DNA of 64,000 bases from Eledone cirrhosa (taxonomy: Eukaryota), in assembly GCA_964016885.1 (NCBI GenBank), contig OZ024742.1:206150001-206214000 (forward strand), read 5' to 3'. Numbering within the stretch: the first letter of the stretch is position 1; each line of letters starts with the position of its first letter. Shown here piece after piece: positions 6,870 to 53,292 of the stretch. The notes beneath the pieces are model-generated. The model ran no database searches. It worked only from the letters and a program-made list of their open reading frames with translations, and had not been told where the DNA came from. The position numbers and the translations under genes were made by a program.

Positions 6870-7073
6870 GAAGTGGTCATGTAGGTGCCACGGTAAATAG
6901 CAACCAGTACTCACTGTAAATGAAGTTGGTGTTAGAAAGGGCATCCAGCTGTAGAACTCAAGCCAAAATCAGTTCTCGTATGAGCAAGACAAGGTCAGCC
7001 GACCGGGCACAGCCCACAACTGCCCACCCATGCTAATGTGGAAGAATCGACGTAAAACGGTGATGATGATGAT
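6870..7073 (+). mobile_element. SINE 3' half with RTE-type tail ending in (GAT)n
   Basis: gaaagggcatccagctgtagaa core plus cccatgctaatgtggaag..gacgtaaaacggtgatgatg. Related copies at ~5290-5450, 42850-43060, 48355-48602, 54205-54490, 60490-60638 and 63472-63598. Confidence 0.75.
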
Positions 7074-7521
7074 ATTTACTAGAATAGGAATACAATATGG
7101 GTTAGAAATAAATAAATATACAGAGTTACATATGTGTGACTGTATAGAAACATTTACAATGTTTTATACAAATACATGTCATCATCTTTATCATTACACA
7201 TACCATAAAGAAATATGTATAATAATAATAATAATAATAATAATAGTAATAATAATAATAATAATAATAATGATTTCTTTATTAACCACAAGGGTTTACA
7301 TAAAGTAGACATTAAGGACAGTGCAGAACAATATGGGACGGTACAAATGGGCATTTCTGCGTGTAAAAAACAAAAACAGAGGATGTAACAAAAAATAACA
7401 ATGAAAAATTCCCCAATAGAGGGGAGACTTCGGAGGGACATTTGTGGAGAAAGCCCAGTAAAAGGCCACAGTGACCCTGACCACCAAGGCAAGTGCCCTC
7501 TCCCAGTTTTCCACCTTTAAT

Positions 7522-10500
7522 TTACATATACGTACTCAGAGTAGGCCCATTCACTCGGGCCATTCTTGCTTCTCTCACCCATCTTTCAACAAAATGTTGG
7601 GAAGAGAGCACTTCCCTCTCTACTCTGATTTTCCTTTTCAAATGAAATTTGAAAAAGTCAATCAGGGCATCACCGAAGAGGTAAGTGCTCGTCTTCAGCC
7701 CTTTCCAACGTGTCCACCATACTATCTCTTTCGCCATGGCCACCAGACAGATAAAAACTGCCTGCCCTTCCCGGCTAAAGGAAGAGGGCGGGGCAATCCT
7801 CACGATGGACTCAGATGATAGCCGGATCCGTCCTACACGCGACAGCAGGTGTTCGACATAAACCCACAAGTCAGCAATTTTCGGACACTGGACGAGTGCG
7901 TGCAGGACGGTTTCGTCGCCCTGCGCGCATCTCGGATATGCCCGGCTGACGGCACCTCCATGCCTGTAGAGTTTATCCCGAACTGGCAAGGCTCCTCGGT
8001 AGTACTGCCAGGCCAGAGATTTCTGGAAATTGTCCATAGGCCCCGGCCCGAAAGTTCTTCCGAAGAGATTGGCTAGTTGATTTTCGTCGACGCCTAAAGT
8101 TTCCCCAAATACGTCGTCGCACTTCCCCTCCACTAATCCTCTATAGAACGCCGAGGTGGAGTTTTCACCGATCACATTGCCAGATTGGTCGAGGGCTGTG
8201 AGCGCCTGAAGACATTCCAGTTTCCAGGCGCTATCTCTCGGTCTTCGCTTGACCCAGGACTGCAGCTCCGTAAAGGAAACGAGCTGGGGAAATACGTGTC
8301 TAGCAAACAGCGACCTCACCTGATCACCGCCGAGGAAGAGGTGGAGATGTCGTAGCCTGAGCGCGTGTCTGCGCATCATCAGCCACGGCATGCCCAGCCC
8401 TCCACGTAGCGGGTGTTGACAACAGATGGACCGCCTGACCATCGGAGCGCGTGCCTTCCACAAAAAGCGAAAGAGCAAACGCTCCAGCGCAGTCAGGCGA
8501 GGCTTAGGACAAGGTACGACGGTCAGGCGGTAGCAGATGACAGACGCGATGTACGCGTTAGCCACATCCGCTCGACCTTTCAGGGATAGCTTCCTCTCCG
8601 CCCATTTCTGGGTGAGAGAAGCCACCCTGCTCGTCACCTCGTCCCAGTTTTTGTCCGTCTGGAGGTCCGGAACGAATCAGACCACAAGCAATTTAACCGG
8701 CCCGTCCGTCCAGCGTCCGACGACGCTGTTGGACGGCATGGACCTGCCTCTCCAGGTGCCGAGCTGCAGGCCCACTGACTTTTCCTGGTTTATCATTGCT
8801 CCTGTCATCGCTTCGTATTCTCTTAGTGTAGTGCCGATCGCCTCGTTGTGTTTGGCGTTCGACACCACTACGGTGACATCGTCCGCATATGCTGACACGG
8901 ATCTTCCGCATCCTAGTTCGCGCGGGACGCCCCTCAATGTCTCCAGTTTGTGCAGTAATGGCTCGAGAGTCAATACGTACAAGAGGGACGAGAGGGGACA
9001 TCCTTGGCGGACCGAGCGCATGATGTTGAACGGTTCCGACAGGTGACCGTTCACTCTCACCACAGAGCAGATGTCGCTGTGCATGGCAGCGATCCAGCCT
9101 CTGAAGACGGGCCCAAAGCCAGCCGCCGTCAGAACTGCCGCTAGGTAACGATGGTCGACCCTATCGAAAGCTTTTGACTGATCTAAATTGATCAAGGACC
9201 CACCCGTGCCAGGTTCCCTAGCTACCCTCTCTACGATGTATCGCATGAGGTGGAGGTTGTCGTGGATGGATCTGTCGGGAATGGCGCATGTCTGCGCCTC
9301 TCCCGCCAGACCACCAACGACAAGCGCGAACCTCTTTGCTAGCAGCTTGGCCAAAATCTTGAACTCTGTGTTTAGCAGTTATGGGACAGAAATTATCTAT
9401 GTTATCCCCCTTGTTCAGATCCTTTCTCAGCAGTGCCACCGATCCTCGGCTCACAGAACTGGGAATTCTCCCGTTCTGTTGCCAGTTGCAGTAGACGTCC
9501 GCCAAGAGGCCTCCGAACAAGTCTGGCATCTGTACGTAAAGTTCATAGGGCAGACCATCCAAACCAGGCGATTTACCCCTTGTGCAGCCAGTCATTGCCT
9601 CCCTTACTTCAGCGGCTGTTATCGGCTTTTCGCAACACTCCGCCTCAGTGGCCGAGAGCCGCGGCAGTCCGTCGAGGTAGACACTAAAGTCCATCCCTCG
9701 ACCCGGCCCACCGCTGCCCCCGAACAGAAAATCTTCACACATTTGCCCGGGATCGAGTACCATGCGCCCGTCGTGGTCCACCAAAGACCGGATCGTGGCT
9801 TTGTTGCCACGACGTGCCTCCGCCACTCGGGCCCATTGAACGGCTTTCGTCCCCTCGTGTCTGAGAGCACGCACTCTAGCTCTGACAACGCAGCCTTCGT
9901 GCTTTGCATTGAAGAATTGGTCAAGGGCCAATTTCGCCGCAAGTACGTCGGTCGCGATGCCGTTGCTAAGCGCCTCGTCTAATTTTCTAACTAGTTTTCC
10001 CTCTGCTCTATTTTTATCTATTGCTAAAGCCTTACTAAACCTAATAGACTCTATTCTAATCGCTCTTTTCAGAGCAAACCACCACTTGTTGTTGACGATG
10101 GCCCCCGTCAACGCCGGTTAACTAGTTCCTTAATCCGGTCTCTGTAGGCCTTGCGCGCTGGTAAGGGCGCGTTTAGCTTTCAGTAGCCGGGTCCTCGTCT
10201 ATGAAGCCTATCTAAGTCAAGCACACATATCACGAATTTCTGGTCCGTGTAGCTGACTATCTTGAATTGTGGACAGCCTATGCTAGACCTATCTATTTCC
10301 CTACAAAATACTCTATCTAGATATGATCTGGATGACCCTATGCGATTTGTACAAGTCCACATTGGCACATTCGGGAAATCCAATCGGTACCTGTCAGACA
10401 GTTCAAAACGCCTGAGCAGGTTGGTGAGGCTCTTGCACCATCCTCCCCTATCCGCTAATCCCACACAGTCCCAGCGTGCATCTAAGATCCCGTTCCAGTC

Positions 10501-10920
10501 GCCCACTAACACTAAAGAGCGGGACGTTCCAAGAAAGGTCTCCAGACGCCGGAAGAAATCAGGCCGCCCTGCTCCTGGTGGGGCATAGACCGCCACTAGC
10601 CTTAAAGATTGCCCGTCTCCGCTGGTCACGTCCAGCACCACCAACTTACCTTCTGGGTCCAGGAAGATGGCCCGTATGGCGAGATCTAAACCTCTCCGAA
10701 AAAGCACAGCAACTCCTCTCCCCGATCCAGGACAGCTGGGAGATGCGTACACATCGTAGCCGCCGAAGATCGGTGCGAAGGCCCGTGCTTCGGAGATTCT
10801 GGTCTCGCTGATGGTCACTACATCTATGTTTAGTGACCTGAGGTCGTTGAGCAGGTTCCCCTGCTTCCATGACGACCCCAAGCCACGCGCATTTATGCTG
10901 CCTATTCCGAGTGAGGTCAT
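7522..10920 (-). pseudogene. Tx1 copy 1 ORF2 (AP endonuclease, RT, C-terminal Cys/His finger), disrupted
   Basis: GSINARGL, GDWN, DRVF, GCPLS, AYADD, PRCAQGDETVLHALVQC; stops at 10180 and 8677 plus frameshifts. Confidence 0.92.
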
Positions 10921-10954
10921 GTTGAAATGGAGTGGAAAAGATGGGAAAGACCAC

Positions 10955-12899
10955 TTACCGTACTTTTCGTAGAGGAAGGGTGGTTTTTCCATCCTTTTCA
11001 CTGCTTGTGGCCTCCTCCGGAAGGATGTCCTTATAAATCCTCCTGGAGAGTGTTTGTCGGAAGTCTCCGATGTCTTTGGGGAATGTTTGTTTTAGTGTCA
11101 TGTACGTTTTCTGTGTGATGCGAGTGATTTGTATGTGTGGATGTGGTGTGAACTTTTGGGTTGTTGTGTAGTCTTTTTCTGTGACGCTGGTGTTGTGTTG
11201 GATGTAGTGTAATAATTGGTTGTTGTTCAAATTTAATGCTGTGTAGTGTGTATCGTTTTGGTTGTTTGTTTTGTTTGCGTTTGTTGTGGGTTTGTTTCTG
11301 TTTCGCTTTTTGGTGACTTTTGTGTTGTTGGTGATGGTGGTGATGGTGTTGGTGATGGTGTTGGGGTTAATAATGGTGATGGTGTTGGTGTTTATGGTGA
11401 TGGGGTTGGTGATGCTGGTGTGGATGGTGGCATATCTGTCCTAACTTTTTTGTTTGATAGTTTATTTGTTTCCCTCTGTGTTTTGTTTTTGGAGGGGGAG
11501 GGAAGAGAATTTTTTCTTTTTGGGTTTCTTATTTTCTTTTTTCCTGATACCGTTTCCCACTCCTCGTCGTCACAATCTGTCTCCAGTTGTGATAGGCCGG
11601 GGAGTGGAAAATCCTCCACAGGCGTTGGTTTGGGTTGTGGCGTGGTGGATGATGTAGGCGCTGGTGCTAGTTCTGGCCGTTGGGTGGTGGTGGTGTTGGT
11701 TTTGCTACTATTGCTGGGGTTGTTGCTGTTACAGTTGCTTCTGTTGTTGCTGCTACAGTTGTTGCTGCCATCTCTGCTGCTGGTGGTGTTGATGGTTGAG
11801 TCACTGGGGTGGGTAGGAGAGGTGGCCTCAACCTTTTAGCCTGAGAGCAGAAAGCTCTGAGGTGGAGTCCTTCACCACAAACGACACACCTAGGCCTTCT
11901 CCCCTCGACGATTACGGTGAGGTGGCTGCCGTCAGTGAGGTCTATTACCTCTGGAATCTCAATGCTTTTTTGGTCCGCTTGGATCAGGAGCTCCATCCCA
12001 GATCCGGACCAGTTCTCCTGCTTTTCTTTCGCTATTTCGATTATCTTGGTGTTGGCTTCGATGCCGGCGAGGGCGGCAGCTATTAGCCAGGGAATTTCGA
12101 TGGCCGGTGGAACGTGGGTCACCCTGATCTTTACGAGTCTCTGGCCACATTAGCTTAGGACGAGTGTGGATACGTCACTTCTTAATGGGGCCATGGAGTG
12201 TTGTCTAGCCTCCTGTGGTGTTTCAAAGAACACGTCCACGGCTCCATATTTCTGCCCACGTCTGATGTGGGTTTTTTCCGCCCACACATGTCCCAAAGCT
12301 TTTTGGATTTGGGACTCGGATGCCCGTTCCACTCAGCGCGATTTTGTGTTAATCGTCCGATAAGATACGTGCATAGGCGCCGATGCTCCATTTTATTAGG
12401 TGGGGGGCTGACCCTGTAGCCATCTTTCTTTACCTTTCTCTTGGCTTCATTTAATTCCTCCTGAGTTACCTCGATTGTTTCGCATTTCTTGGCTGCTTTG
12501 GCAAACGACACATTTGCGGTGGTGTTGATGTTTTTGTTGTTATTCACATTGTTGTTGTTGTTGCTATTGTTATTTTCAGCTGTGGTGGTGGTGGCGTCAG
12601 TTGTGTTCGGTGTGGAAGAGTCGATTCTGGGTGAATACATTTCGATGTCACGAGATAATAATTTATTTTTTTCTTTTGTTTCTGTTGTCGCTGTGGTGAT
12701 GGTGGGGGTGGCGGCTTTAACACCTGAAGTTTTTTGGTAATGGCGGGAAATGAATGTCTGCATGAGACAAATTTAAATTATTGCTACTGCTTATATTTTT
12801 AGTGTTGGAAAACGTAGTAATATTTACAATGGTGGTGTTGGTGTGAGGTGTTAGTTTGTGAGAAAGGCTATCAGCCTGGTGTAGCTGTGAGTCGTCCAT
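10955..12899 (-). pseudogene. Tx1 copy 1 ORF1 (gag-like, CX2CX4HX4C knuckle), disrupted
   Basis: CVVCGEGLHLRAFC, SFAKAAK and EWETV motifs; homologous to copy 3 ORF1. Confidence 0.88.
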
Positions 12900-13113
12900 G
12901 ATTTTTTCAAAGAAATTTCTTGTTTAATAATTATAAAAGTTTAAATTTTGAGCTCAAGGCCCCAATCTTTTTGAGTGTCCTTTTCAGAAAGCAAATTTTG
13001 TGACCTTATAAAAACTTAACAACAAACATTTTCCATAAATGGCAATTTGAAACAACTGAAAACAACAAACCTTGGCGGAGCTCACGATAATACGATTTCC
13101 TACGTAGGTCACC

Positions 13114-13174
<61 letters not shown>

Positions 13175-13178
<4 letters not shown>

Positions 13179-14265
13179 GAAATGGATAGGAAGACTAGGA
13201 AGCTATTGACTATCTACAACATGTTCTACAAGAGGAGTGATGTCGATAGACTCTACTTAAGGAGATCTGAAGGTGGAAGAGGTCTTATCAGCATAGAGGA
13301 CTGTGTTCAGATGGAGAAAAACAACCTACACAAATACGGGACTGATAGTAAGGAGCCAATGCTCAGAATTGTACTGAAGACCAGGGGATGTCCAAGGAGG
13401 AAATAACAACAAGGAGTAAGAGCAGCCTTCATGAAAAATCCCTTCATAGTACCTTCTTTGAGAAAACTGAATTCAGAGATCGACAGACATGGAACTGGTT
13501 GAAAAGAGGAGACCTTAAAAAGGCTACAGAAGGAATGTTAATGGCTGCGCAAGAGCAGGCCCTCAAAACGAAGTGGTTGAAACACCATATTTACAAGGAG
13601 GAGGCTACCCACTGTGCAGGATCTGTGGAGAGAGAGAGAGGAGTCTGTGGCTCACATTGTATCCGAGTGTAAACACATAGCCCAGACTCTCTATAAGGGC
13701 TGGAGACATGATGTGATGGGCAGGGTGATCCACTGGCACCTATGCAAAGTAAACAATTTACCACATTCTGAGAGGTGGTATGAGCATAAGCCAGAGTCGG
13801 TGATAGAAAACGATCAGGTGAAGGTGCTGTGGGATTTTAGGATACAGGTGGACAAGAAACTGGAACACAATAGACCTGACCTGGTGGTTTTGGACAAGGA
13901 AAAAAAATCGTGCCTGATTGTGGATGTGGCCTGCCCATTCGACACGAGAGTGCAAGAGAAGGAGAGGGAAAAAATTAACCGATACCAGGACTTAAAGTGG
14001 GAGGTAAAAAGGATTTGGAACTGCCATGAAGTCAAAGTGGTCCCGATTGTCATAGGCGCACTAGGTACTATCTCAAAAAGTTTCCAGGGGTGATTAAAGA
14101 AAATTGGCCCCGCCACGCTGTTTGGAACGCTTCAAAAGGCATGCTTGCTGGGAACAGCAAGAACCCTCCGATACGTCCTGAATATCTGATGCTGCAGGTA
14201 GTGGCTTGATATTCATTTCAACAAACTTTCCAGTTAACTAACATCAATGACTGAGACTCAAAGAA
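13175..14265 (+). mobile_element. R4/Dong-type LINE 3' fragment, family A (CCHC + restriction-like endonuclease), frameshifted
   Basis: LYLRRSEGGRGL, AHIVSEC, HNRPDLVV..DVACPFD..EKINRYQDL, PIVIGALG; (AAT)n tail. Confidence 0.9.
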
Positions 14266-14278
14266 CAATAATAATAAT

Positions 14279-14457
14279 TGTTTCTACTTTAGGCACAAGG
14301 CCAGCAATTACCCAGTGCATTACTGGTACTTTATTTTATCGACCCCGTAAGGATGAAAGGCAAAGTAAACCTCGTCGGGATTTGAACTCAGACCGTAAAG
14401 GGACGTAACTATGCTGGAAAGCATGGCGTCCGACCCTCTACCGATACTGCCAAGCCA
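14279..14457 (-). mobile_element. tRNA-derived Deu/Nin-type SINE with 20-bp TSD (caaagaacaataataataat)
   Basis: Minus: gagttcaaatccc B-box, gcctttcatccttacggggtcgataaaataaagtaccag core, ggccttgtgcctaaagtagaaaca(att)n tail. TSD at 14259-14278 / 14458-14477. Confidence 0.88.
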
Positions 14458-14483
14458 CAAAGAACAATAATAATAATAATAAT

Positions 14484-14665
14484 TGTTTCTACTTTTGGCA
14501 TAAGGCCAGCAATTACCCAGTGTATTACTGGTACTTCATTTTATCGACCCTGTAAGGATGAAAGGCAAAGTTAACCTCAGCGAGATTTGAACTCAGATCG
14601 TAAAGGGACGTAACTACGCTGGAAAGCATGTCTGACCCTCCACAAATACTTCCAATTCACCGCCC
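14484..14665 (-). mobile_element. Deu/Nin-type SINE, full length
   Basis: Same consensus, inserted in (AAT)n. Confidence 0.88.
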
Positions 14666-14673
14666 TATAATAC

Positions 14674-14710
<37 letters not shown>

Positions 14711-17700
14711 TCTTTCTTTCTTTATTAACCACGAGGGTTGACATAAAGTATTATATTAAGGACAGCATAGGATGGTAGAGGGTGGTACAAATGGGCATTT
14801 CTGCATGTAAAGAAAAAAAAGTACTAACAAAGGAAATAACAAAATAACAAAAAAAAATTAAACAAGGGAAAATACCCCAATAGAGGGTAGACTTCCAAGG
14901 GTCCCTCCCAAAGAAAGCTTATTAAAAAAGCCACAGTAACCCTGACCACCTGGGCGAGTGCCCTCTCCCAGTTTTCCATCTTCAGTTTACAAGCGCATAC
15001 TCAGAGCAGGCCTCTCTCACCCATCTTTCAACAAATTTCTGGGAAGGGAGCACTTCTCTCTCCACCCTGATTTTCCTTTTTAAATGAAATTTGAAAAAGT
15101 TAATCAGGGCATCGCCCTTTCAAACGTGTCCACCACACAACTTTTTCACTATGGCCACCAGGCCTGCCCTTCCTAACTAAAGGAAGGTGGCGGGGCAATC
15201 CTCGTGATGGACTCAGCTGATAGCGGGATCTATCCAACATGTGACAGCAGGTGTTCGACAAAAATCCACTAGTCAGCAATGCTCAGACACTGGACAAGTG
15301 CGTGCAGGACAGTTTCGTCACCCTGTGCGCATATCGGACAGGCCTGGCTGATGGCATTTCACACCTGTAGAATTTATCCCGAACTAGCAGAGCTCTCCGA
15401 TAGCACTGCCAGGCCAGGCCAGGGATTTCTGGAAATTGTCCATGGTCCCCGGCCCGAAAGTTCTACCGATGAGATTGGCTAGTTGATTTTCGTTGATTCT
15501 CAGAGTCTCACCAAGGACGTTGTCGCTCTTTCCTTCCACTAAGCTTCTATAGAACACCTAGGTGGAGTTTCCACCAATCGCATCACCCAATTGGTCAAGG
15601 GCTGTGATTGCCTGATGACATTTCAATCTGCAAGCGTTCCCTTCCAGTCTTCACTTGACCCAGGACTGCTGCTTCGTCAAGGAGACGAGCTGGGAAATAA
15701 TGGATCTAACAAAAGGGCGACCACACCTGTTCCCATTGAGGAAGAGGTGGAGATATTCCGTAGCCTGAGCGCATGTCTGCACATCATCAGCCACGGCATG
15801 CCCAGCTCTCCACGTAGTGGGCAATGACAGCAAATGGACCGCCTGACAATTGGAGCACATCCCTTTCACAAAAAGCGAAAGAGCAAACGCTTCAGCGCAG
15901 TCAGGTGAGGCTTAGGACAAGGCACGACGGTCAGACGGTAGTAGATGATGGATGCAATGTACGCGTTTGCTACCTCCACTCGACCTTTCAGGGATAGCTT
16001 CCTCTCAGCCCATTTATGGGTGAGAGAAGCCACCTTGCTCAGTACCTCATCCCAGTTTTTGTCCCTCTGGAGGTTTGGACCAAACCAGACCCCTAAAAAA
16101 TTAACTGGTCCGTCCGTCCAGCGCCTGATAATGCTGTTGGATGGCATGGACCTGCCTCTCCAGGTGCTGAGCTGAAGGCTCACCGACTTTTCCTGGTTAA
16201 TCATTGCTCCTGTCACCACCTCATATTCTCTTAGTGTAGCGCCGATCGCCTCGATATGTTTGGCATTTGACACCACTACAGTGACGTCGTTGGCATATGC
16301 TGCCATGGTTCTCCCGCATCTCAGTTCACACGGGATACCTCCCAATGTCTCCAGTTTTTGCAGTAATGGCTCGAGAGTCAATACGTACAATAGGGACGAG
16401 AGGGGACATCCTTGGCAGACCGAGCGCATGATATTGAATGGTTCCGAAAGGTGACCGTTCACTCTCACCACAGAGCAGATGTCGCTGTGCATGGCAGCGA
16501 TCCAGCTTCTGAAGATTGGCCCAAAGCCGGCCACCCTCAGTACCACCACCAGATAAGGATGGTTGACCCTATCGAAAGTTTTTGACTGATCTAAATTGAT
16601 CAAGGCCCCAGCCAGGTTTGTTAGCTACCCTCTCCACGATGTATCGCATGAGATAGAGGTTGTCGTGGATGGACCTGTCTGGCGCATGTTTACAACTTTC
16701 CCACCAGTCCACCTATGACAAGCGCCAACCTCTTTGTTAGCACCTTGGCAAAATTCTTGATATCTGTGTTTAGCAGAGTTATGGGCCTGAAATTATCTAT
16801 GTTGCCCTTTGTGTTCAGGTCCTTTCTCAGTCGAGCTGGGAATTCTCCCATTCTGCTGCCAGTTGCAGTAGACGTCTGCCAAGAGGTCACCGAACAAGTC
16901 TGGCATGTGTACGTAAAGCTTGTAGGGCAGAGCATCCAAACTAGGCGATTTACCCATTGTGCAGTCAGTTATTGGCTCCCATACTTCAGCAGCTGTTATC
17001 GGCTTTTTGCAACACTCCACCTCAGTCAAGGTAGGCCCTAAAGTCCATCCTGCGATCCGACCCATCGCTGCCCTCGAACAGCTGAGCGAAGTGCCACTGA
17101 AAAGCTGCTCACATTTGCCTGGGTTTGAGTAACATGCACCTGCCGTGGTCCTCCAAAGACCGGATTGTGGCGTTGCTGCCTCGATGTGCCTCCACCACTC
17201 GGACCCACTGAACGGCTTTCGTCCCCTCATGTCTGAGAGCACGTGCCCTAGTTCCGACAATGCAGCCTTCGTGCTTTGCATTGAAGAAATGGTCAAGGGC
17301 CAATCTCGCTGCAAGCATGTTGGTCGTGATGCCTTTACTAAGCACCTCGTCAATTTTTCTAACTAGTTCTCCCTCTGCTCTATTCTTCTATTCTAATCAC
17401 CCTTCTGGGGGCGAACCACCATTTGTTGTTGACGACTGCCCCTGTCAATGCCTGCTTAACTAGTTTGGTCTCTGTAGTCTTTGCACATTGACAGCGACCT
17501 GTTTAGCTTCCAGTAGCCAGGTCCCTGTCTATAAAGCCTATCTAAATCGACCACACAGTTCATGAATTTGCAGTCCGTGTAGTCAACTATCTTGAAGTGT
17601 AGACAACCTATGCTAGAACTATCTACTTCCTTACAAAATACTCTATCTAGATACGATCTGGATGACCATGTCCTGATGCAGTTTGTCCATGTCCATATTG

Positions 17701-20540: not shown

Positions 20541-20567
20541 TAATAATAATAGTAATAATTATTATAA

Positions 20568-22193: not shown

Positions 22194-22226
<33 letters not shown>

Positions 22227-22468
22227 TTTTCTTTATTAACCACAAGGGTTCACATAAAGTAGACATTAAGGACAGTACAGGACAATGCAGGACGGTACAA
22301 ATGGGCATTTCTGCGTGTAAAAAAACAGAGGTTGAAATAAAATAACAAAGAAAAATTCCCCAATAGGGGGGAGACTTCCAAGGGACATTTGTGGAGAAAG
22401 CCCATTAAAAGACCACAGTGGCCCTGACCACCAGGGCAAGTGCCCTCTCCCAATTTTCCACCTTTAAT

Positions 22469-25400: not shown

Positions 25401-25886
25401 GCACCCTCCTTCCCTATCCACTAATCCCACACAATCCCAGCGTGCATCTAAGATCCCGTTCCAGTCGCCCACTAACACTAAAGAGCGGGACGTTCCAAGA
25501 AAGGTCTCCAGACGCCGGAAGAAATCAGGCCACCCTGCTCCTGTCGGGGCATAGACGGCCACTAACCTGAAAGCTTGCCCGTCTCCGCTGGTCACGTCCA
25601 GCACCACCAACTTACCTTCTGGGTCCAGGAAGATGGCCCGTTTGGCAAGATCCAAACCTCTCCGAAAAAGCACAGCAACTCCTCCCCCCGATCCCGGACG
25701 GCTGGGAGATGCGTACACATCGTAGCCGCCGAAGATCGGTGCGAAAGCCTGTGCTTCGGAGATTCTGGTCTCGCTGATGGCCACTACATCTATGTTTAGT
25801 GACCTGAGGTCGTTGAGCAGGTTCCCCTGCTTCCATGACGACCCCAAGCCACGCGCATTTATGCTGCCTATTCCGAGTGAGGTCAT
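22469..25886 (-). pseudogene. Tx1 copy 3 ORF2, two frameshifts (~23725, ~23070)
   Basis: APE (ETR, GDWN, TDH), RT (GCPLS, YADD) and CPRCAQGDETVLHALVQC, spread over three frames. Confidence 0.93.
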
Positions 25887-25920
25887 CTTGAAATGGAGTG
25901 GAAAAGATGGGAAAGACCAC

Positions 25921-27881
25921 TTACCTTACTTCTCGTAGGGGAAGGACGGTTTTTCCATCCTTTTCACTGCTTGTGGCCTCCTCAGGAAGGATGTCCTTAT
26001 AAATCCTCCTGGAGAGTGCTTGTCGGAAGTCTCCGATGTCTTTGGGGAATTTTTGTTTTAGTGTCATGTACGTTTTCTGTGTGATGCGAGTGATTTGTAT
26101 GTGTGGAGGTGGTGTGAATTTTGGGGTTGTTGTGTAGTCTTTTTCTGTGATGCTGGTGTTGTGTTGGATGTAGTGCAATAATTGCTTGTTGTTCAAATTT
26201 AATGCTGTGTAGTGTGTATCGTTTTGGTTGTTTTGTTTTGTTTGTGTTCGTTGTGGGTTTGTGTCTGTTTCGCATTTTGGTGACTTTTGTGGTGTAGGTG
26301 ATGGTGGTGGTGTTTGGGTTGATGGGGTTGGTGATGCTGGTGTGGATGGTGGCATATCTGTCCTAACTTTTTTGTTTCTTAGTTTATTTGTTTCCCTCTG
26401 TATTTTGTTTTTGGAGGGGGAAGGAAGAGAATTTTTTCTTTTTTGGTTTCTTTTTTTTTTCCGGATATCGTTTCCCACTCCTCGTCGTCACAATCTGTCT
26501 CCAGTTGTGATAGGCCGGGGAGTGGAAAATCCTCCACAGCCGTTAGTTTTGGTTGTGGTGTGGTGGATGGTGTAGGCGCTGGTGCTAGTTCTGAAGCGTT
26601 GGGTGGTGGTGGTGTTGGTTTTGCTGGTGGTGGTAGTGGTGTTGGTTTTGCTACTGTTGCTGGGGTTGTTGCTGTTATAGTTGCTTCTGTTGTTGCTGCT
26701 ACAGTTGTTGCTGCCATCTCTGCTACTGGTGGTGTTGATGGTTGTGTCACTGGGGTGGGTAGGAGAGGTGGCCTCAACCTTTTAGCCTGAGGGCAGAAAG
26801 CCCTTAGGTGGGTTCCTTCACCACAAACGACACACCTAGGTCTTCTGCCCTCGACAATTACCGTGAGGTGGCTGCCGTCAGTGAGGTCTATTACCTCTGG
26901 GATCTCCTCAATGCTTTTTTGGTCCGTTTGGATCAGGAGCTCCATCCCAGATCCGGACCAGTTTTCCTGCTTTTCTTTTGCTACTGCTATTATTTTCGTG
27001 TTGGCTTCGATGCCGGCGAGGACAGCCGCTATTAGCCAGGGAATTTCGATGGCCGGTGGAACGTGGGTCACCCTGATCTTTACGAGTCTCTGGCCACAAT
27101 AGCTTGGGACGAGTGTGAGGTCGTCACTTTTTAATGGGGCCATGGAGTGTTCTCTAGCCTCCTGTGGTGTTTCAAAGAACACATCCACGGTTCCATACTT
27201 TTTCCCACGTCTGATGTGGGTTTTTCTTGCCCACACATGTCCCAAAGCTTTTTGGATTTGGGACTCGGATGCCCGTTCCACTCGGCGCGATTTTACATTT
27301 ATTGTTCTATACGACACGGTGCACAGGCGCCGATGCTCCATTTTATTATGGGGGGGGGCTGACCCTGTACCCATCTTTCTTTACCATTTGTTTGGCATTT
27401 TCTAAATCTTCTTGAGTTACCGTGAACGCTTCGAATTGTTTTGCTACGATGGCGAAACTGAGGGTCGGTTTTATAATGTCATTGTTGTTGTTGTTGCTAT
27501 CGTTATTTGTGTTAATCTTAATTTTTGTTTCAGTTGTGGTGGTGGTGACGTCATTCGTCTTTGGTGCGGAAGAGTCCATTTTGCTTGATTTTATTTCGAC
27601 ATCACGAGTTAATTTATTTTTTTCTTCTTTTGTTTCCGTTGTCGCGGTGGTGGTGGGGGTGGTGGTTGTCGCGTTGGTGGTGGTGATGGAGGCTTTAACA
27701 CCTGCAGTCATTGGTAATGGCGGGAAATGAATGTCTGCCTGAGACAAATTTAAAATATTGCTACTGCTTATATTTTTTTTGTGTTGGCAAACGTAGTAAC
27801 ATTTACAATGGTGGTGTCGGTGTGAGGTGTTAATTTGTGAGGAAGGTTTTCAGCTGCTTGTTGCAGAGGTGAATTAGCCAT
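25921..27881 (-). pseudogene. Tx1 copy 3 ORF1, frameshifted at homopolymer runs
   Basis: MANSPLQQAAENL... CVVCGEGTHLRAFC ...LPLREVR*; shifts near 27775 (T run), 27355 (G run) and 26455 (T run). Confidence 0.88.
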
Positions 27882-28088
27882 TTTTTTTGAAAGAAATTTT
27901 TGATAATAATAAAAGTTTAAATTTTGGGCACAAGGCCCCAATCTTTTTGGGTGTCCTTTTCGGAAAACAATGTATGTGCGCTTATAAACAGTTAACAATA
28001 AAATTTTCCATAAATGACAATTTTTAACAAACGGAAATAACAAACCTTTGCGGAGCTCACGATGATACGATTTACTACGTAGGTCGCC

Positions 28089-28149
<61 letters not shown>

Positions 28150-28152
<3 letters not shown>

Positions 28153-29169
28153 GATAGGAAGACTAGGAAGCTATTGACTATCTACAACATGTTCCACAAG
28201 AGGAGTGATGTCGATAGACTCTACCTAAGGAGATCTGAGGGTGGAAGAGGTCTTATCAGCATAGAGGACTGTGTTCAGATGGAGAAAAACAACCTATACA
28301 AATACGTGACCTATAGTAAGGAGCCAATGCTCAGAACTATTCTGAAGGAGGGGACAGTAGGCCAGGGGATGTCCAAGGAGGAAATAACATCAAGGAGGAA
28401 GAGCAGCCTTAAGGGAAAATCCCTTCATAGTACCTTCTTTGAGAAAACTGAATTTAGAGATCCACAGACATGGAACTGGTTGAGAAGAGGAGACCTCAAA
28501 AAGGCTACAAAAGGAATGCTAATGGCTGCGCAGGAGCAGGCCCTCAAAACGAAGTGGTTGAAGCACCATATCTACAAGGAGGAGGCTAGCCCACTGTGCA
28601 GGATCTGTGGAGAGAGAGAGGAGACTGTGGCTCACATTGTGTCCGAGTGTAAACACCTAGCCCAGACCCACTATAAGGGCTGGAGACACGATGTGATGGG
28701 CAGGGTGATCCACTGGCACCTGTGCAAAGTAAACAATTTACCACACTCTGAGAAATGGTATGAGCATAGGCCAGAGGCGGTGATGGACAACAATCGGGTG
28801 AAGGTGCTGTGGGATTTTAGGATACAGACGGACAAAAAACTGGAACACAATAGACCTGACCTGGTGGTTGTGGACAAAGAAAAAAGATCGTGTCTGATTG
28901 TGGATGTGGCCTTCCCTTTCGACACGAGAGTGCAAGAGAAGGAGAGGGAGAAAATTAACCGATACCAGGACCTAAAGTGGGAGGTGAAAAGGATTTGGAA
29001 CTGCCATGAAGTCAAAGTGATCCCGATTGTCATGGGCGCACTGGGGACTATCTCCAAAAGTTTCCAGGGATGGTTAAAGAAAATCGGCCCCGTCACGCTT
29101 TTTGGAACGCTTCAAAAGGCATGCTTGCTTGGAACAGCAAGAACCCTCCAATACGTCCTGAATATCTGA
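28150..29169 (+). CDS. Intact 339-aa C-terminal ORF of an R4/Dong-type LINE (CCHC finger + PD-(D/E)xK restriction-like endonuclease); element extends to ~29243
   Basis: CRICGEREETVAHIVSEC, RHD, HNRPDLVVVD..IVDVAFPFD..EKINRYQDL. No RT. Expression unknown. Confidence 0.6.
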
Positions 29170-29273
29170 GGCTGCAGGTAGTGGCTTGATATTCATTCCA
29201 ACGGACTTTCCAGTTAACCAACATCAATGACTGAGATTCAAGGAATAACAACAATAATAATAATAATAATAAT

Positions 29274-29538
29274 TGTTTCTACTTTAGGCACAAGGCAAGC
29301 AATTAGCCAGTGCATTACTGGTACTTTATTTTATCGACCCCGTAAGGATGAAAGGCAAAGTCAACCTCGGCGGGATTTGAACTCAGATCGTAAAGGGACG
29401 TAACTATGCTGGAAAGCATGGCGTCCGACCTTCTACCGATACTGCCAATCCACCGCCAATAATAATAATAATAATGTTTCTACTTTAGGCACAAGGCCAG
29501 CAATTACCCAGTGCATTACTGGTACTTTATTTTATCGA
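29274..29538 (-). mobile_element. Two Deu/Nin-type SINEs (29274-29457 full length; 29475-29538 5'-truncated)
   Basis: Match the SINE consensus; separated by (AAT)n. Confidence 0.88.
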
Positions 29539-29557
29539 ATAATAATAATAATAATAA

Positions 29558-29882
29558 TTTAAAAAATGTGGAAATTGAGAACTGAAACAATACCAGTGGT
29601 TGTAGGCACTCTAGGAATGATACCTAAGGGGTCTAATGATTACGTATCGCAAATCCCAGGAAACCCGCGTATAGGAGAAATACAAAAGATAGTACTAATG
29701 GGAACTGCCCATATACTAAGGAAGATTCTGTCAATATAAATACATCACAAGTCTAAACACCTAAAGATGCATGTGTGTGTATGTATGTTCTTTCTTAAAC
29801 ATGGCGGACCTTGTTGTCTCTTGAGGTCACTGGTTGTGACTTGGTGATAACTTGTATGAACATAAAGCAAGATAAATGCAAC

Positions 29883-29883
<1 letters not shown>
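29558..29883 (+). mobile_element. R4/Dong-type LINE extreme 3' end, family B
   Basis: KMWKLRTETIPVVVGTLGMIP...IQKIVLMGTAHILRKILSI*, with a distinct 3' UTR, between (AAT)n tracts. Confidence 0.82.
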
Positions 29884-29940
<57 letters not shown>

Positions 29941-30210
29941 GTAATAATAATAATAATAATGATTTCTTTATTAACTACAAGGGTTTACATAAAGTAGACA
30001 TTAAGGACAGTGCAGGACAATGCAGGACGGTACAAATGGGCATTTCTGCGTGTAAAAAACAAAAACAGAGGATGTAACAAAAAATAACAATGAAAAATTC
30101 CCCAATAGGGGGGAGACTTCGGAGGGACATTTGTGGAGAAAGCCCAGTAAAAGGCCACAATGACCCTGACCACCAAGGCAAGTGCCCTCTCCCAGTTTTC
30201 CACCTTTAAT

Positions 30211-33200
30211 TTACAGATATATACTCAGAGAAGGCCCATTCACTCGGGCCATTCTTGCTTCTCTCACCCATCTTTCAACAAAATGCTGGGAAGAGAGCAC
30301 TTCCCCCTCTACTCTGATTTTCCTTTTCAAATGAAATTTGAAAAAGTCAATCAGAGCATCACCGAAGAGGTAAGAGCTCGTCTTCAGCCCTTTCAAACGT
30401 GTCCACCATACTATCTCTTTCGCCATGGCCACCAGACAGATAAAAACTGCCTGCCCTTCCTGGCTAAAGGAGGAGGGCGGGGCAATCCTCACGATGGACT
30501 CAGATGATAGCCGGATCCGTCCTAAACGCGACAGCAGGTGTTCGACATAAACCCACAAGTCAGCAATTTTCGGACACTGGACGAGTGCGTGCAGGACGGT
30601 TTCGTCGCCCTGCGCGCATCTCGGACATGCCCGGCTGACGGCACCTCCATGCCTGTAGAGTTTATCCCGAACTGGCAAGGCTCCTCGGTAGCACTGCCAG
30701 GCCAGAGATTTCTGGAAGTTGTCCATAGGCCCCGACCCGAAAGTTCTTCCGAAGAGATTGGCTAGTTGATTTTCGTCGACGCCTAGAGTTTCCCCAAGTA
30801 CGTCGTCGCTCTTCCCCTCCACTAATCCTCTATAGAACGCCGAGGTGGAGTTTCCACCGATCACATTGCCCGATTGGTCGAGGGCTGTGAGCGCCTGAAG
30901 ACATTCCAGTCTCCAAGCGCTCCCTCTCGGTCTTCGCTTGACCCAGGACTGCAGCTCCGTCAAGGAAACGAGCTGGGGAAATACGTGTCTAGAAAACGGC
31001 GACCACACCTGATCACCGTCGAGGAAGAGGTGGAGATGTCGTAGCCTGAGCGCGTGCCTGCGCATCATCAGCCACGGCATGCCCAGCCCTCCACGTAGCG
31101 GGTGTTGACAACAGATGGACCGCCTGACCATCGGAGCACGTCCCTTCCACAAAAAGCGAAAGAGCAAACGCTCCAGCGCAGTCAGGCGAGGCTTAGGACA
31201 AGGTACGACGGTCAGGCGGTAGCAGATGACAGACGCGATGTACGCGTTAGCCACCTCCGCTCGACCTTTCAGGGATAGCTTCCTCTCCGCCCATTTCTGG
31301 GTGAGAGAAGCCACCCTGCTCGTCACCTCGTCCCAGTTTTTGTCCGTCTGGAGGTCTGGACCGAATCAGACCACAAGCAATTTAACCGGCCCGTCCGTCC
31401 AGCGTCCGACGACGCTGTTGGACGGCATGGACCTGCCTCTCCAGGTGCCGAGCTGCAGGCCCACTGACTTTTCCTGGTTGATCATTGCTCCTGTCATCGC
31501 TTCGTATTCTTTTAGTGCAGTGCCGATCGCCTCTATGTGTTTGGCGTTCGACACCACTACGGTGACATCGTCCGCATATGCTGACACGGATCTTCCGCAT
31601 CCTAGTTCGCGCGGGACGCCCCTCAACGTCTCCAGTTTGTGCAGTAATGGCTCGAGAGTCAATACGTACAAGAGGGACGAGAGGGGACATCCTTGGCGGA
31701 CCGAGCGCATGATGTTGAACGGTTCCGACAGGTGACCGTTCACTCTCACCACAGAGCAGATGTCGCTGTGCATGGCAGCGATCCAGCCTCTGAAGACGGG
31801 CCCAAAGCCAGCCGCCCTCAGGACTGCAGCTAGGTAACGATGGTCGACCCTATCGAAAGCTTTCGACTGATCTAAATTGATCAAGGACCCACCCGTGCCA
31901 GGTTCCCTAGCTACCCTCTCTACGATGTATCGCATGAGGTGGAGGTTGTCGTGGATGGATCTGTCGGGAATGGCGCATGTCTTCGCCTCTCCCACCAGAC
32001 CACCAACGACAAGCGCCAACCTCTTTGCTAGCACCTTGGCCAAAATCTTGAACTCTGTGTTTAGCAGAGTTATGGGCCTAAAATTATCTATGTTATCCCC
32101 CTTGTTCAGATCCTTTCTCAGCAGTGCCACCGATCCTCGGCTCACAGAACTGGGAATTCTCCCGTTCTGTTGCCAGTTGCAGTAGACGTCCGCCAAGAGG
32201 CCTCCGAACAAGTCTGGCATCTGTACGTAAAGTTCATAGGGCAGACCATCCAAACCAGGCGATTTACCCCTTGTGCAGCCAGTCATTGCCTCCCTTACTT
32301 CAGCGGCTGTTATCGGCTTTTCGCAACACTTCGCCTCAGTGGCCGAAAGCCGCGGCAGTCCGTCGAGGTAGACACTAAAGTCCATCCTTCGACCCGGCCC
32401 ACCGCTGCCCACAAACAGCTGAGCGAAGTGTCGCTGAAAAGCTTCACACATTTGCCCGGGATCGAGTACCATGCGCCTGTCGTGGTCCACCAAAGACCGG
32501 ATCGTGGCTTTGTTGCCACGACGCGCCTCCGCCACTCGGGCCCATTGAACGGCTTTCGTCCCCTCGTGTCTGAGAGCACGCACCCTTGCTCTGACAACAC
32601 AGCCTTCGTGCTTTGCATTGAAGAATTGGTCAAGGGCCAATTCCGCCGCAAGCACGTCGGTCGCAATGCCTTTGCTAAGCGCCTCGTCTAATTTTCTAAC
32701 TAGTTCTCCCTCTGCTCTATTTTTCTCTATTGCTAAAGCCTTACTAAACCTAATCGATTCTATTCTAATCGCTCTTTTCAGAGCAAACCACCACTTGTTG
32801 TTGACGATGGCCCCCGTCAACGCCCGCTTAACTAGTTCGCTAATCCGGTCTCTGTAGGCCTTGCGCGCTGGTAAGGACGCGTTTAGCTTCCAGTAGCCGG
32901 GTCCTCGTCTATGAAGCCTATCTAAGTCAAGCACACAGATCACGAATTTGTGGTCCGTGTAGCTGACTATCTTTAATTGTGGACAGCCTATGCTAGACCT
33001 AGCTATTTCCCTACAAAATACTCTATCTAGATATGATCTGGATGACCATATGCGATTTGTCCAAGTCCACATTGGCACATTCGGGAAATCCAATCGGTAC
33101 CTGTCAGACAGTTCAAAACGCATGAGCAGGTTGGTGAGGCTCTTGCACCCTCCACCCCTATCCGCTAATCCCACACAGTCCCAGCGTGCATCTAAGATCC

Positions 33201-33628
33201 CGTTCCAGTCGCCCACTATCACTAAAGAGCGAGACGTTCCAAGAAAGGTCTCCAGACGCCGGAAGAAATCAGGCCGCCCTGCACCTGTCGGGGCATAGAC
33301 GGCCACTAGCCTGAAAGCTGCCCGTCTCCGCTGGTCACAGCCAGCACCACCAACTTACCCTCTGGGTCCAGGAAGATGGCCTGTATGGCGAGATCCAAAC
33401 CTCTCCGAAAAAGCACAGCAACTCCTCCCCCGATCCAGGACGGCTGGGAGATGCGTACACATCGTAGCCGCCGAAGATCGGTGCGAAGGCCCGTGCTTCG
33501 GAGATTCTGGTCTCGCTGATGGCCACTACATCTATGTTTAGTGACCTGAGGTCGTTGAGCAGGTGACCCTGCCTCCATGACGACCCCAAGCCACACGCAT
33601 TTATGCTGCCTATTCTGAGTGAGGTCAT
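30211..33628 (-). pseudogene. Tx1 copy 4 ORF2, stop at 31366 and frameshifts in the endonuclease domain
   Basis: 646-aa and 371-aa segments with APE, RT and finger motifs. Confidence 0.92.
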
Positions 33629-33663
33629 GTTTAAAATAGAGTGGAAAAGATGGGAAAGACCAC

Positions 33664-35764
33664 TTACCGTACTTTTCGTAGAGGAGGGATGGTTTTTCCA
33701 TCCCTTTTCACTTGATCGTCTGGTGAAGGGACCGTTGAATCGTCCCTTCGGCTGGTCGTCGGCTCTTCTATGAGTATGTCCGAATATACTCTTCGGTTGA
33801 TAGTTCCTCCTAGGTCTCTGAAATCACCAACTGCGTTGGGGAATTTCGTTTTAATGTTTGTGTATTGTTTCTGTGCTATTTTTAGCAGTCTTATGTTAGT
33901 TGGCGTTTTGATTGGTGCTGGTATTATGTAGTCGTGTTGTGAAATGTCTGTGTGTTCAATTATGTAAGTCATTAGTTTCTTGTTGTGTGTATTTATTGCC
34001 GTGCATTTGTTTTTCTGGGGTGGGGTGTTGTTCTGCTATTTTCTTGTCGTTGTTGCTGGGTGTGTGTGTTTTGTTGTTGTGTTTGCGATGTTGGTGCTTG
34101 TGGTGGTGGTGTTGAAGGTGTTATTGTCGGTGGGGTTGTCGCCGGTGGTGATGGTGGTGCTAGTGTGGGTGGTGATGGTGTTGGTGGTGTTGCTGCTCTG
34201 AGTCTCTTTGCAGTAGACTTTACCCTTTTTTCATTTCTTTCCTCCCTTTTCAAAGGCGACGATGCGCTGCTTCTGCGTTTGTGCCTTCTTACGACCTTTT
34301 GCCATCCCTCTCCCACCTCACACTCCATGTCTGATTCTGTGAGGTCGGGGAGGGGTACCAGCTCCACTCTTTCACTTGTTGTTGTTGGTGATGTTTGCAC
34401 TGGAGGCTCTGTTGCAGCTGCATTTGGTATTGCTGTTGTTGTTGTTAATATTTCCACTGCTGCTGCTGTTTTTGATTTCCGTGGCGTGGGTATGGGTGCC
34501 ACAGACCTATCGTTCCTGGTTGCCACTTGTCCTGTTGCTGGTAGCCGTGGAGCCGGTTTCGGAAGGAGGGGGGTTTTCTCCTTTCTCAGGGTCTTCTCGT
34601 TGCAGAAGGCCCTGAGGTGAGTCTTCGATCCACAGCGAAAGCATTTCGGGCGTTTGCCCTCAACACTTATGGGCAGTTGAGTGCCGTTATCGAAGTCTAT
34701 CACATCCGGGATAGCTTCGATGCACTCCTGGTTGGTTTGGATTAACATCTCAATGGAGGTGCCGACCCAATCTTCTCTTACTTTTTTCTGTACTTGCAGT
34801 ACAGTTGTTTTGTCCTCGATTCCGACGAGGACAGACGCGGCCAGCCAAGATGGGGCCATCCCGGGGGGGGGGGGGGCGTTGGTCAGTTTGACCCTCACAA
34901 TTTTTTGCCCGCAGTAGGAGGGCACCAACACCATTTCCTCGCTCCTTAGGGTCACTACGGATTGAGCCTTTGCCTCCTGGGGTGTGGCAAAAAGTACGTC
35001 TACGGTGGCATATTTCTTGCCTCGAGTGATGTGCGTTTTCCGCTGCCACAAGACCCCAAGGCTTTTTGTATTTGAGCCTCTGTTGCTCTTTCAACCCTAC
35101 GGGATTTTGTACTCACTGTACGGTACGTGACCATACAGTGCTGTTGGGTTTCGAAAAATTTTTCCGCTGCCTTGCAGATTGCTCGGTGTCCAGTTTTTGT
35201 CACCATCATCTTCGCTTCCTCTAATTCCTCATTTGTTATGAGGATTGTTTCCAGGTTCTTCGCGATACCTGCAAACGAGATTGGTTTTTCTTTGCTGCTG
35301 TTGTTGTTGTTGTTGTCGTCAGAGCTGCTGTTACTTTTGTTGTTGCTGCAGGTACTACGACTACCGCCGCCGCCGCTGTTGCTGTGGTTGTTGTTGTTGT
35401 TGCTGCTGCTAATGCTGTTGTTGTTTATGCTGCTGCTGATGCTGTTGCGGCTGCTACTGTTGTTTTCATTGTCACTGTCGCTGTTGTTATTACGGCTGCT
35501 ACTGCTATTATTCCTGACGTCAGACGAATGAAATGGGTTTTCGTATTTCCCGCACACCTGTTTCGTCGTTGTCGTGGAGAAATCTTGCACGCTTTGCACG
35601 AGACTTTTCTTTTCTGTCGTTGCTTGCGAAAGAGAAGGGAGGGAGAGAGACACATTTAAAGAAGGGAGGGAGAGAGACAATCTTCTCTCTGCTGTAGTGA
35701 CGATTGAGGAAGAAGATGACGGAATGAGTGGGAGTGACCTATGAAAATTCTTTTTCGTAGCCAT
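33664..35764 (-). pseudogene. Tx1 copy 4 ORF1, second ORF1 lineage
   Basis: ISFAGIAK, RRVERATEAQIQKALG, CFRCGSKTHLRAFC and GWQKV; one frameshift (~35055) and one stop (33993). Confidence 0.87.
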
Positions 35765-36359
35765 GTTGTTTTTTTTTGTTTAAAATAAATATTGGGCACA
35801 AAACCCCAATAAGCAGTGATTTAACCCCGAAGGGCCAAATAACGGGCAGAAAGACCCCTCTCACGAGGAGGAGGGTGTTTTTGTCTACAAGTTGGTTAAA
35901 GTTTTAAACAATTTACAATTGTTATAGCGTTCAAAATTTACAATAGCTTACAGAGCCGAGCCTCCGTCAACCATAGCATTCAATAATAATAATAATAATG
36001 ATATGTATTGCTCTTTCTATGAAAGAAAAACATATTTTCATTAAATTATATTGAAAGTGGGGTAAAACATTTAGCTAAATTTCTTTCCACACTCCCCCAC
36101 ATTTCTTTCATTACTGCATGAAGTGCGGCGTGGGTAGGAGTTCCTGTATAAGAAGTGAATTTCTTTGAAACAGAAGGCTGTGTAATATATCATGCAATCA
36201 GCTATATCAGTATTGTGATTTCCAGCAGGTAGGCACTCTATCTATACAGAAGCTTTCATTGTTGCAGCAGTGCTCAATCTACAAGGTAAAATGCTTCAGT
36301 GTAATTTCTACTAAATAGAAACTAGATCATTCTCTTTTTCTCATACTTCCATGTTTGTT

Positions 36360-50612: not shown

Positions 50613-50660
<48 letters not shown>
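50507..50660. repeat. Compound microsatellite (GTA)n(GGA)n(TAA)n
   Basis: Direct observation. Confidence 0.95.
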
Positions 50661-50664
<4 letters not shown>

Positions 50665-53245: not shown

Positions 53246-53292
53246 TTATCATAATGTCAGTGACATATTATGGGAAGTAAAGTAGAGTAAGG

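Follow-up and report, generated by a model that had tools for sequence, protein, structure and literature searches.

How do twelve retroelements come to lie end to end, each joined to the next by the same trinucleotide repeat and each kind reading in a single direction? The question is raised by positions 7221-35999 of a 64,000-nucleotide stretch of the Eledone cirrhosa genome (assembly GCA_964016885.1, contig OZ024742.1, positions 206,150,001 to 206,214,000, forward strand), hereafter the window. This 29-kb stack consists of Tx1-like long interspersed nuclear elements (LINEs), short interspersed nuclear elements (SINEs) and fragments of Dong/R4 elements. We consider it probable that it is a pile of retrotranspositions joined by (AAT)n and laid down in fixed polarity by the mechanism proposed below.

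The stack was mapped by a scan for (AAT)3+ and (ATT)3+, self-BLAST, Pfam and direct reading, together with alignment of copies. It comprises 12 elements and 13 junctions, in the plus-strand order T1(-) DA(+) S1(-) S2(-) T2(-) DB(+) T3(-) DC(+) S3(-) S4(-) DD(+) T4(-). All 13 junctions are (AAT)n with at least three AAT units each, as the first-pass annotation had described for 7.2-36.0 kb, the T2/DB junction being decayed. In the rest of the window, only 0.04% of strand-positions (31 of 70,362) are the start of an (ATT)3, and the junction runs are therefore not chance. The minus strand carries four Tx1-like LINEs and four SINEs, and the plus strand four Dong/R4 3′ fragments, again as annotated; the latter belong to two families, three sharing a common 3′ end and the piece at 29559-29885 representing the other. 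The LINEs had been called full-length. The strand of LINEs and SINEs and the two termini of each LINE hold, but the LINE open reading frames (ORFs) are broken, with remnants of the apurinic/apyrimidinic endonuclease-like (APE), reverse transcriptase (RT) and zf-RVT domains detected by Pfam and an intact ORF2 in none of the four, and one SINE is a 62-bp piece. Likewise, the alignments agree that no element of the window is nested in the body of another, although this is no general rule, since SINEs sit inside LINE bodies elsewhere (L077, L152, L160, L364 and L373). The features are as follows, the (AAT)n rows coming from the repeat scan unless another source is named.

7213-7220, no strand: left copy of the 8-nt direct repeat ATATGTAT around the whole stack, a possible duplication from the founding insertion.
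7221-7271, plus: (AAT)8 AGT (AAT)8, the 3′ flank of LINE T1.
7272-13113, minus: T1, Tx1-like LINE with both ends and broken ORFs; 97% identical to the nearest dispersed copy compared, over the 3′ kb.
13114-13173, plus: (AAT)20 between the T1 5′ end and the DA truncation point.
13174-14266, plus: DA, 5′-truncated 3′ fragment of Dong/R4 family 1 (self-BLAST, alignment).
14267-14278, plus: (AAT)4.
14279-14457, minus: S1, SINE (sequence reading, alignment).
14466-14483, plus: (AAT)6.
14484-14665, minus: S2, older SINE, 90% identical to the nearest copy compared.
14675-14710, plus: (AAT)12.
14711-20538, minus: T2, the most diverged Tx1-like LINE; best other genomic 5′ ends 81-91% identical.
20539-20572, plus: decayed (AAT)n with 3 perfect units and AGT and TAT interruptions (reading), likely the oldest junction of the stack.
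20573-22195, plus: DB, older Dong family 1 fragment, 91% identical to the nearest copy compared.
22196-22225, plus: (AAT)10, the DB/T3 tail-to-tail junction.
22226-28088, minus: T3, young Tx1-like LINE, 98.8% identical to dispersed copies at its 3′ end.
28089-28151, plus: (AAT)21.
28152-29252, plus: DC, young Dong family 1 fragment that bears CCHC and restriction-like endonuclease (RLE) motifs; 98.9% identical to dispersed copies.
29253-29273, plus: (AAT)7.
29274-29457, minus: S3, complete young SINE with an A/B-box-like head (sequence reading) and a 3′ hairpin in common with the LINE.
29458-29475, plus: (AAT)6.
29476-29537, minus: S4, 62-bp 3′ SINE piece with (AAT)n on both sides (reading, alignment).
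29538-29558, plus: (AAT)7.
29559-29885, plus: DD, 3′ fragment of a second R4/Dong-like family whose C-terminus resembles that of family 1.
29886-29960, plus: (AAT)18 AGT (AAT)6.
29961-35981, minus: T4, Tx1-like LINE; ORF2 93-98.5% like T1/T3 per 400 columns, 5′ untranslated region (UTR) and ORF1 37-61%.
35982-35999, plus: (AAT)6, the 5′ flank of T4.
36001-36008, no strand: right copy of the 8-nt direct repeat, matching 7213-7220.

The simplest way to obtain such a series would be the copying of one LINE-Dong-SINE unit, by tandem or segmental duplication or by mis-assembly. A single 7.4-kb self-alignment at 91% indeed covers all three kinds of element (T1-DA-S1 against T3-DC-S3), and the truncation points of DA and DC nearly coincide, to within about 10 nt. 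Yet every piece is closer to a dispersed copy than to its twin in the window (DC 98.9 vs 92.0%, DA 95.6 vs 92.0%, T3 98.8 vs 93.4%, S3 98.9 vs 96.1%), and identity between T1 and T3 is uneven along their length, from 75% to 96%. The common cut falls in a truncation cluster that Dong family 1 shows about 1.1 kb before its 3′ end, where 5 of 60 other copies end within about 55 bp, and the difference of 3-25% between the copies excludes a mis-assembly of one of them. Tandem duplication was rejected on these comparisons, and we give the whole explanation hardly any credence.

Nearest-copy identities across the stack instead range from 78-91% (T2, DB and S2, in mid-stack) to 98-99% (T3, DC, S3 and T4). 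The baits favoured young copies, and a direct search with the T2 5′ end still found at best 91%. The first 189 nt of T3 are 100% identical at all 40 genome matches listed, T3 itself included. The order of insertion can be read at one point, where the last 8 nt of DA (14259-14266) recur at 14458-14465; the S1 duplication thus takes in the end of DA, and S1 inserted later. From these sequences the stack reads as twelve separate retrotranspositions of different ages. T4 in turn is a member of a genome-wide subfamily and not a local chimera. LINE subfamilies exchange their 5′ UTR and ORF1 and keep ORF2 (29961-35981 against 22226-28088), giving at least three 5′ types, and a further 5′ type follows runs in L159, L224 and L227.

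We then consider whether the repeat accompanies the LINE across the 3.0-Gb assembly that holds the window. A 24-mer at the T3-type 5′ end occurs exactly 2240 times and has (ATT)3 directly before it, in one register, in 2090 cases; the three exceptions among the first 100 such ends listed are point-interrupted runs with the register unchanged. A run precedes the 5′ end in all 30 best LINE matches (T3 included), and every one of 30 unselected copies carries between 3 and 24 perfect units there, with a median of about 13. At T4-type 5′ ends, reached from 3′-end baits, a perfect run adjoins in 14 of 15. Of 24 ends of the older T2 type, 13 satisfied a strict test, and the majority of the remainder had shorter or decayed ATT. 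The 3′ ends, whose 28-mer has 7278 exact occurrences in the genome, carry at least three units in 28 of 30 and at least two in 30 of 30, with poly(A) in none of 30. Some runs grade into (TTC)n further out, ATT being what directly adjoins the LINE. One short 3′ piece (L229) lies between tracts of (ACT)n and not (ATT)n, with a single ATT at the start; this may reflect a relaxed target or later repeat conversion.

After 14 rows were dropped as internal deletions, 23 of 44 truncated LINEs (52%) adjoined a run. Two truncated copies (L170, with 16 nt, and L029, with about 12 nt) have ordinary target-site duplications at sites of two ATT units. Full-length LINEs keep to a single joining register; the junctions of truncated LINEs can be fitted to any of the three phases (13, 13 and 12 of 17 cases), and truncated Dong junctions likewise have no fixed register (25, 21 and 24 of 36). 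Because the register is fixed in full-length copies and absent from truncated ones, the near-perfect 5′ association of the former probably owes part of its strength to repeat that the RNA brings along. Whether the full-length LINE RNA bears a short AUU leader we put at about even odds.

These observations bear on two opposite explanations. In the first, the APE endonuclease strictly requires long (ATT/AAT)n, all 5′ runs existed before insertion, and the SINE is carried by some looser LINE. The 93% of exact full-length 5′ ends (near 100% when interruptions are allowed), the median of about 13 perfect units, the rarity of unique-sequence duplications (2 of 34 flank pairs) and the rarity of SINE heads after (ATT)3 (68 of 28,753 matches) would all fit. 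Such an enzyme is difficult to reconcile with a run at only 23 of 44 truncated copies, with the ordinary duplications of L170 and L029, with one register in full-length copies and none in truncated ones, and with the hairpin and nick motif that SINE and LINE have in common, and we regard it as unlikely. In the second, there is no targeting: (ATT)n would be part of the element, as tail and 5′ leader, and stacks would reflect tolerance of insertions in repetitive DNA. The fixed register agrees with this, as does the 8-nt direct repeat lying outside both terminal runs of the stack, and other LINEs also end in short tandem repeats, for example TAA in the I element (PMC3747384; sources cited by accession are represented here by portions of their text). 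However, truncation points that lack any leader still adjoin a run on the right strand in 23 of 44 LINEs and 49 of 60 Dong copies, against a background of 0.04%, neighbours less than 15 kb apart lie on one strand in 34 of 36 cases, and element bodies are spared while junctions are hit repeatedly. The pure tail-and-leader model is largely refuted by the truncated copies, and we rate it very improbable. We therefore return to targeted insertion, in a graded form: the LINE would recognize a short nick motif, assisted by pairing between RNA and target. The first-pass annotation had proposed a (TTA)n-specific Tx1 family. Both LINE ends are tied to (ATT)n on the sense strand genome-wide, as it implied; strict specificity is unlikely in view of the truncated copies and the two-unit sites.

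Polarity was counted over 232 loci with 329 distinct runs, four loci overlapping the window having been dropped. Contacts at these runs were sense for the LINE in 210 of 212, antisense for Dong in 169 of 173 and sense for the SINE in 69 of 70. Contacts facing 5′ ends cannot be explained by tails and were therefore counted separately, with the same outcome (LINE 114 of 116, Dong 71 of 72). The annotation's further claim, that Dong uses the same repeat from the opposite strand, thus extends to the genome, and the two outcomes it had set against its own proposal, flanks other than (AAT)n and random orientation, are not what the 2090 of 2240 5′ ends and the 210 of 212 LINE contacts display.

Stacking also recurs. 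Among the first 100 LINE 3′ ends on C1, 36 of 99 neighbours lie less than 15 kb apart, where 2.9 are expected at random; they have their strand in common in 34 of 36 cases, compared with 28 of 57 for neighbours more than 30 kb apart. Other stacks occupy 21 kb near C1:11.28 Mb and at least 26 kb near C1:36.94 Mb, parts of both matching no entry of our element library, and further clusters include a 12-kb pair and a 1.2-kb mini-stack. All four clusters that were fetched are polarised alike. The stack in the window is a large example among many and no special locus.

The plus-strand partner behaves as its relatives do. Truncated Dong copies adjoined (AAT)n in 22 of 22 cases (DC included) and, in a wider census from which one row was dropped, in 49 of 60. 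Full length is near 4.5 kb, and L161 holds an open ORF of 1141 aa with RVT_1, a weak zf-RVT and no Exo_endo_phos in Pfam. Judged by pattern, its translation appears to contain CCHC and RLE motifs; a profile search of this ORF returned no endonuclease match. The features that define Dong/R4 are thus found, namely a single ORF with RT followed by CCHC and RLE motifs, no APE, and insertion at (TAA)n. In silkworm, mosquito and a snail, Dong (R4 clade) reportedly occupies TAA microsatellites (PMC3812793), and the window pieces resemble it in their single ORF and in (AAT)n at truncation points. They differ in that two Dong families are present and that the runs are also used, on the other strand, by an APE LINE and a SINE. 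The Dong part of the finding is, by itself, ordinary and already known behaviour. One 170-bp piece of the second Dong family stands by itself at 50662-50831 (region 50614-50852) between (AAT)16 and (AAT)7, adjoining (AGT)n and (AGG)n; with the polarity of the stack, it is a one-element version of it.

For the SINE, 19 of 29 copies have target-site duplications of 11-21 nt. These begin at Y/ATTAT: A, T, T, A and T occupy successive positions in 18, 17, 19, 18 and 16 of 19, and C or T stands before them in 17 of 19. At most four units follow the SINE, and (ATT)3 precedes its head in the 68 of 28,753 matches mentioned above, a denominator inflated by a satellite derived from that head. Such a satellite, with a 45-bp period, extends over at least 40 kb at C1:10316723-10356513, and a smaller array lies near C1:1982013. 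The head may be tRNA-like: judged by consensus, it presumably contains A/B-box-like motifs, and it had no match in Rfam at E up to 1. In L152 and L160 the SINEs lie at nearly the same LINE position, about 1900-1934. At L359 the SINE came second, its duplication taking in the LINE's first bases, and short runs after SINE tails are therefore no evidence for a leader.

LINE subfamilies and SINE share, within their last 35 nt, a hairpin with loop CUUGU and stem AACC/GGUU, GGCC/GGCC or UGGC/GCCA. Its inner three pairs are intact in 93, 100 and 93 of 102 distinct 3′ ends. Over 14 rows, 88.5% of cells are paired and three of the four pairs have changed on both sides; none of 500 shuffles scored as high for pairing, both-side changes or covariation, and slid controls reached 17-56%. 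Because hairpin, nick motif and strand are held in common, the LINE lineage is the likely partner that mobilises the SINE.

Did the stack grow in one place? We infer that it arose wholly within one small ATT-rich site, or single microsatellite. An AGT interruption recurs in 2 of 13 runs and in the decayed junction, compared with 2 of 288 runs elsewhere, which supports a single site, as expected if duplications copied the interruption. The bracketing 8-nt match was reached by 1 of 1122 mismatched flank pairs, or about 3% over 34 trials. If it is a target-site duplication, the site before insertion would have had no microsatellite and the founding insertion would have brought the repeat by its tail only; this is a single case. 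Duplications of unique sequence outside the runs occur in only two of 34 flank pairs (this stack and L170), so that repeat-free founding sites are no general feature of this sample.

The steps we propose rest on sequence, nicking and RNA ends being predicted. The LINE APE endonuclease would nick the AAT strand at a short site (Y/ATTAT on the top strand), and the freed ...ATAAT-3′ end would pair with an RNA (AUU)n located after the element's 3′ hairpin and AAUAAA, priming reverse transcription inside the repeat. Copies primed in this way would end in (ATT)n without poly(A) and read on the ATT strand. Long runs would be preferred because they hold many places to nick and permit longer pairing. 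Full-length RNA is likely transcribed from a point within the upstream repeat, a few bases in, and the cDNA end could then anneal to the target and give one joining register; R2-like 5′ joining through co-transcribed target has been described (PMC4494074). For the SINE, copying in trans by way of the common hairpin is likely; being almost tail-less, it would land at any short site. Dong, with its unrelated restriction-like endonuclease, would enter these runs too, but read on the AAT strand. Every insert would be left with repeat on either side, from tails and from duplications of about 18 nt, so that occupied sites would stay targets and stacks grow. The "self-renewing" landing pad of the first-pass annotation is in this sense reasonable to expect from tails and duplications; it is not an observation. 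A bolder version can be entertained only tentatively: a Tx1-like RNA with AUU at both ends founds (ATT)n at ATTAT-like sites, LINE, SINE and two Dongs colonise it from opposite strands, this self-built niche makes stacks genome-wide, the LINE is the engine of a major octopus SINE, and the 8-nt repeat is the founding scar.

Several points weigh against this account. Twenty-one of the 44 truncated LINE copies have no adjoining run, and later deletions or inversions explain some of them, not all. The hairpin is of 4 bp, the search pattern already contained its loop, and its 14 related rows were hand-picked from the 102; of five whole-structure measures, the two pair counts were no better than the shuffles (244 and 323 of 500). 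The carrier of the SINE could be another, older LINE subfamily instead of T1, T3 or T4. Twenty loci read for pre-insertion sites by means of SINE duplications gave no clean case. A search of sequencing runs gave three of one sample, possibly the source, that contain the flank, and three RAD libraries; four of these read sets, placed over 35940-36480, were uninformative, with the junction masked, no alternative join and no empty allele; as neither an empty allele nor an orthologue is at hand, pre-existing and newly made repeat are not separated here.

What, then, is the LINE? The copy in L069 has an open ORF2 of 1152 aa with Exo_endo_phos, RVT_1 and zf-RVT in Pfam, and the solved structures closest to its endonuclease are L1 endonucleases (E about 1e-5). 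An ORF1 of 536 aa lies upstream and carries a C-x2-C-x4-H-x4-C motif read from its translation; no ORF1 family passes in a Pfam scan. The APE, RT and zf-RVT domains, the CCHC ORF1 and the L1 structure matches place it, as judged from these sequences, in the L1 group of non-LTR retrotransposons. Within that group it is likely a Tx1 element; the homologue lists, cluster members and Atlas entries compared carried no Tx1 label. In an RT tree it forms, with good support, one group with proteins of an argonaut (73%) and a cuttlefish, and RTs from fish, turtle, hagfish and sea cucumber, their clade unnamed, adjoin this group; its nearest named proteins are those of argonaut (73%), an octopus gene model and cuttlefish. 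The endonuclease hairpin loop aligns without gaps to human L1 and with two gaps to a Tx1L graft, and is thus of L1 length, by a weak alignment; the Tx1L endonuclease has a loop extended to eleven residues, known for one Tx1 member (PMC1950540). A working criterion for a Tx1 target is that one type accounts for more than 20% of the flanks (PMC4494074); the values here are 93% of full-length 5′ ends and 52% of truncated junctions. The junctions are (ATT)n and not the (TC)n or (TTC)n of Kibi and Koshi. Of two metagenome scans for relatives of the LINE, one found none and the other found relatives of 25-42% with no consistent flanking repeat.

Each ingredient of this arrangement has a precedent. 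Microsatellite-associated Tx1 families include Kibi at (TC)n, Koshi at (TTC)n and crocodilian elements at (TTCC)n/(TTTC)n (PMC4494074). These are likewise two-ORF, APE-type L1-group LINEs with microsatellite on both flanks; the present element differs from Kibi and Koshi in its A+T-only unit as opposed to pyrimidine tracts, its cephalopod host and its thousands of copies. The closest precedent is offered by SART and TRAS, two families that enter one tandem repeat, the telomeric (TTAGG)n, in opposite directions, where two to three units suffice and RNA-target pairing helps priming (PMC7265360). Both are R1-clade APE elements at chromosome ends, whereas here APE and RLE elements meet on dispersed trinucleotide runs, which are likely supplied by the elements' own tails. 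Keno and Utopia, a Tx1 (APE) and an RLE element, similarly converge on one target at U2 snRNA genes (PMC4640811), although they use the same gene site and not opposite strands of a microsatellite. Stringent SINE/LINE pairs with a common 3′ stem-loop are known, including a monocot L1 lineage (PMC3747384), and SINEU pairs with Tx1-Mar (PMC4494074). The present pair resembles them in its 3′ hairpin with compensatory changes and its common target motif, and differs in a likeness of only about 35 nt, in a SINE copy number of thousands or more and in having an L1-group partner from an animal. The covered portions of PMC4758252 and PMC4824008 name no partner LINE for octopus SINEs.

The repeat unit, the pairing of APE and RLE elements on opposite strands of dispersed runs and the link to a SINE appear undescribed. 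No (TAA/ATT)n-associated Tx1 was found in the literature, a search to which Repbase and Dfam entries were external, so that absence from print is not established; neither (ATT)n targeting by Tx1 nor such stacks occur in the portions covered of PMC8967140, PMC10294476, PMC4758252, PMC4824008, PMC5203782, PMC3812793, PMC4494074, PMC4640811, PMC7265360, PMC3747384 and PMC13282606. The findings would add a new repeat unit to the microsatellite targets of LINEs and a case of two unrelated endonucleases using one dispersed target in opposite directions, and they name a candidate partner for an abundant SINE, together with the hairpin by which it may be recognized. An octopus repeat annotation of 2026 gives LINE 12.9% and SINE 11.6%, finds L1-Tx1 and Dong-R4 recently active, and maps LINE/SINE hotspots without explanation, targets being unmentioned in the portion of its text covered (PMC13282606); stacking on (AAT)n is a candidate mechanism for such hotspots. 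Caution is also due with (AAT)n markers in such genomes, since these frequently coincide with the junctions of retroelements. The biochemistry can be tested directly, as there are near-identical copies whose long reading frames are open.

The rest of the window holds other repeats. Two old LINE remnants with RT, 65% alike and without (AAT)n flanks, lie at 3177-4970 and 45557-47324, and a PHD finger at 4373-4831. A second SINE-like family with a (ATG/CAT)n end occurs at 6871-7073, 41119-41445, 48353-48602, 49684-50014 and 52816-53252, and a 48-bp tandem array at 52820-53088 derives from it. At 54700-58562 there is a 3.9-kb CA-rich minisatellite of extreme strand skew, with a 20-bp unit repeated about 186 times, and 59328-62999 is built of nested inverted and direct repeats with a unit of roughly 300 bp, resembling a miniature inverted-repeat transposable element.

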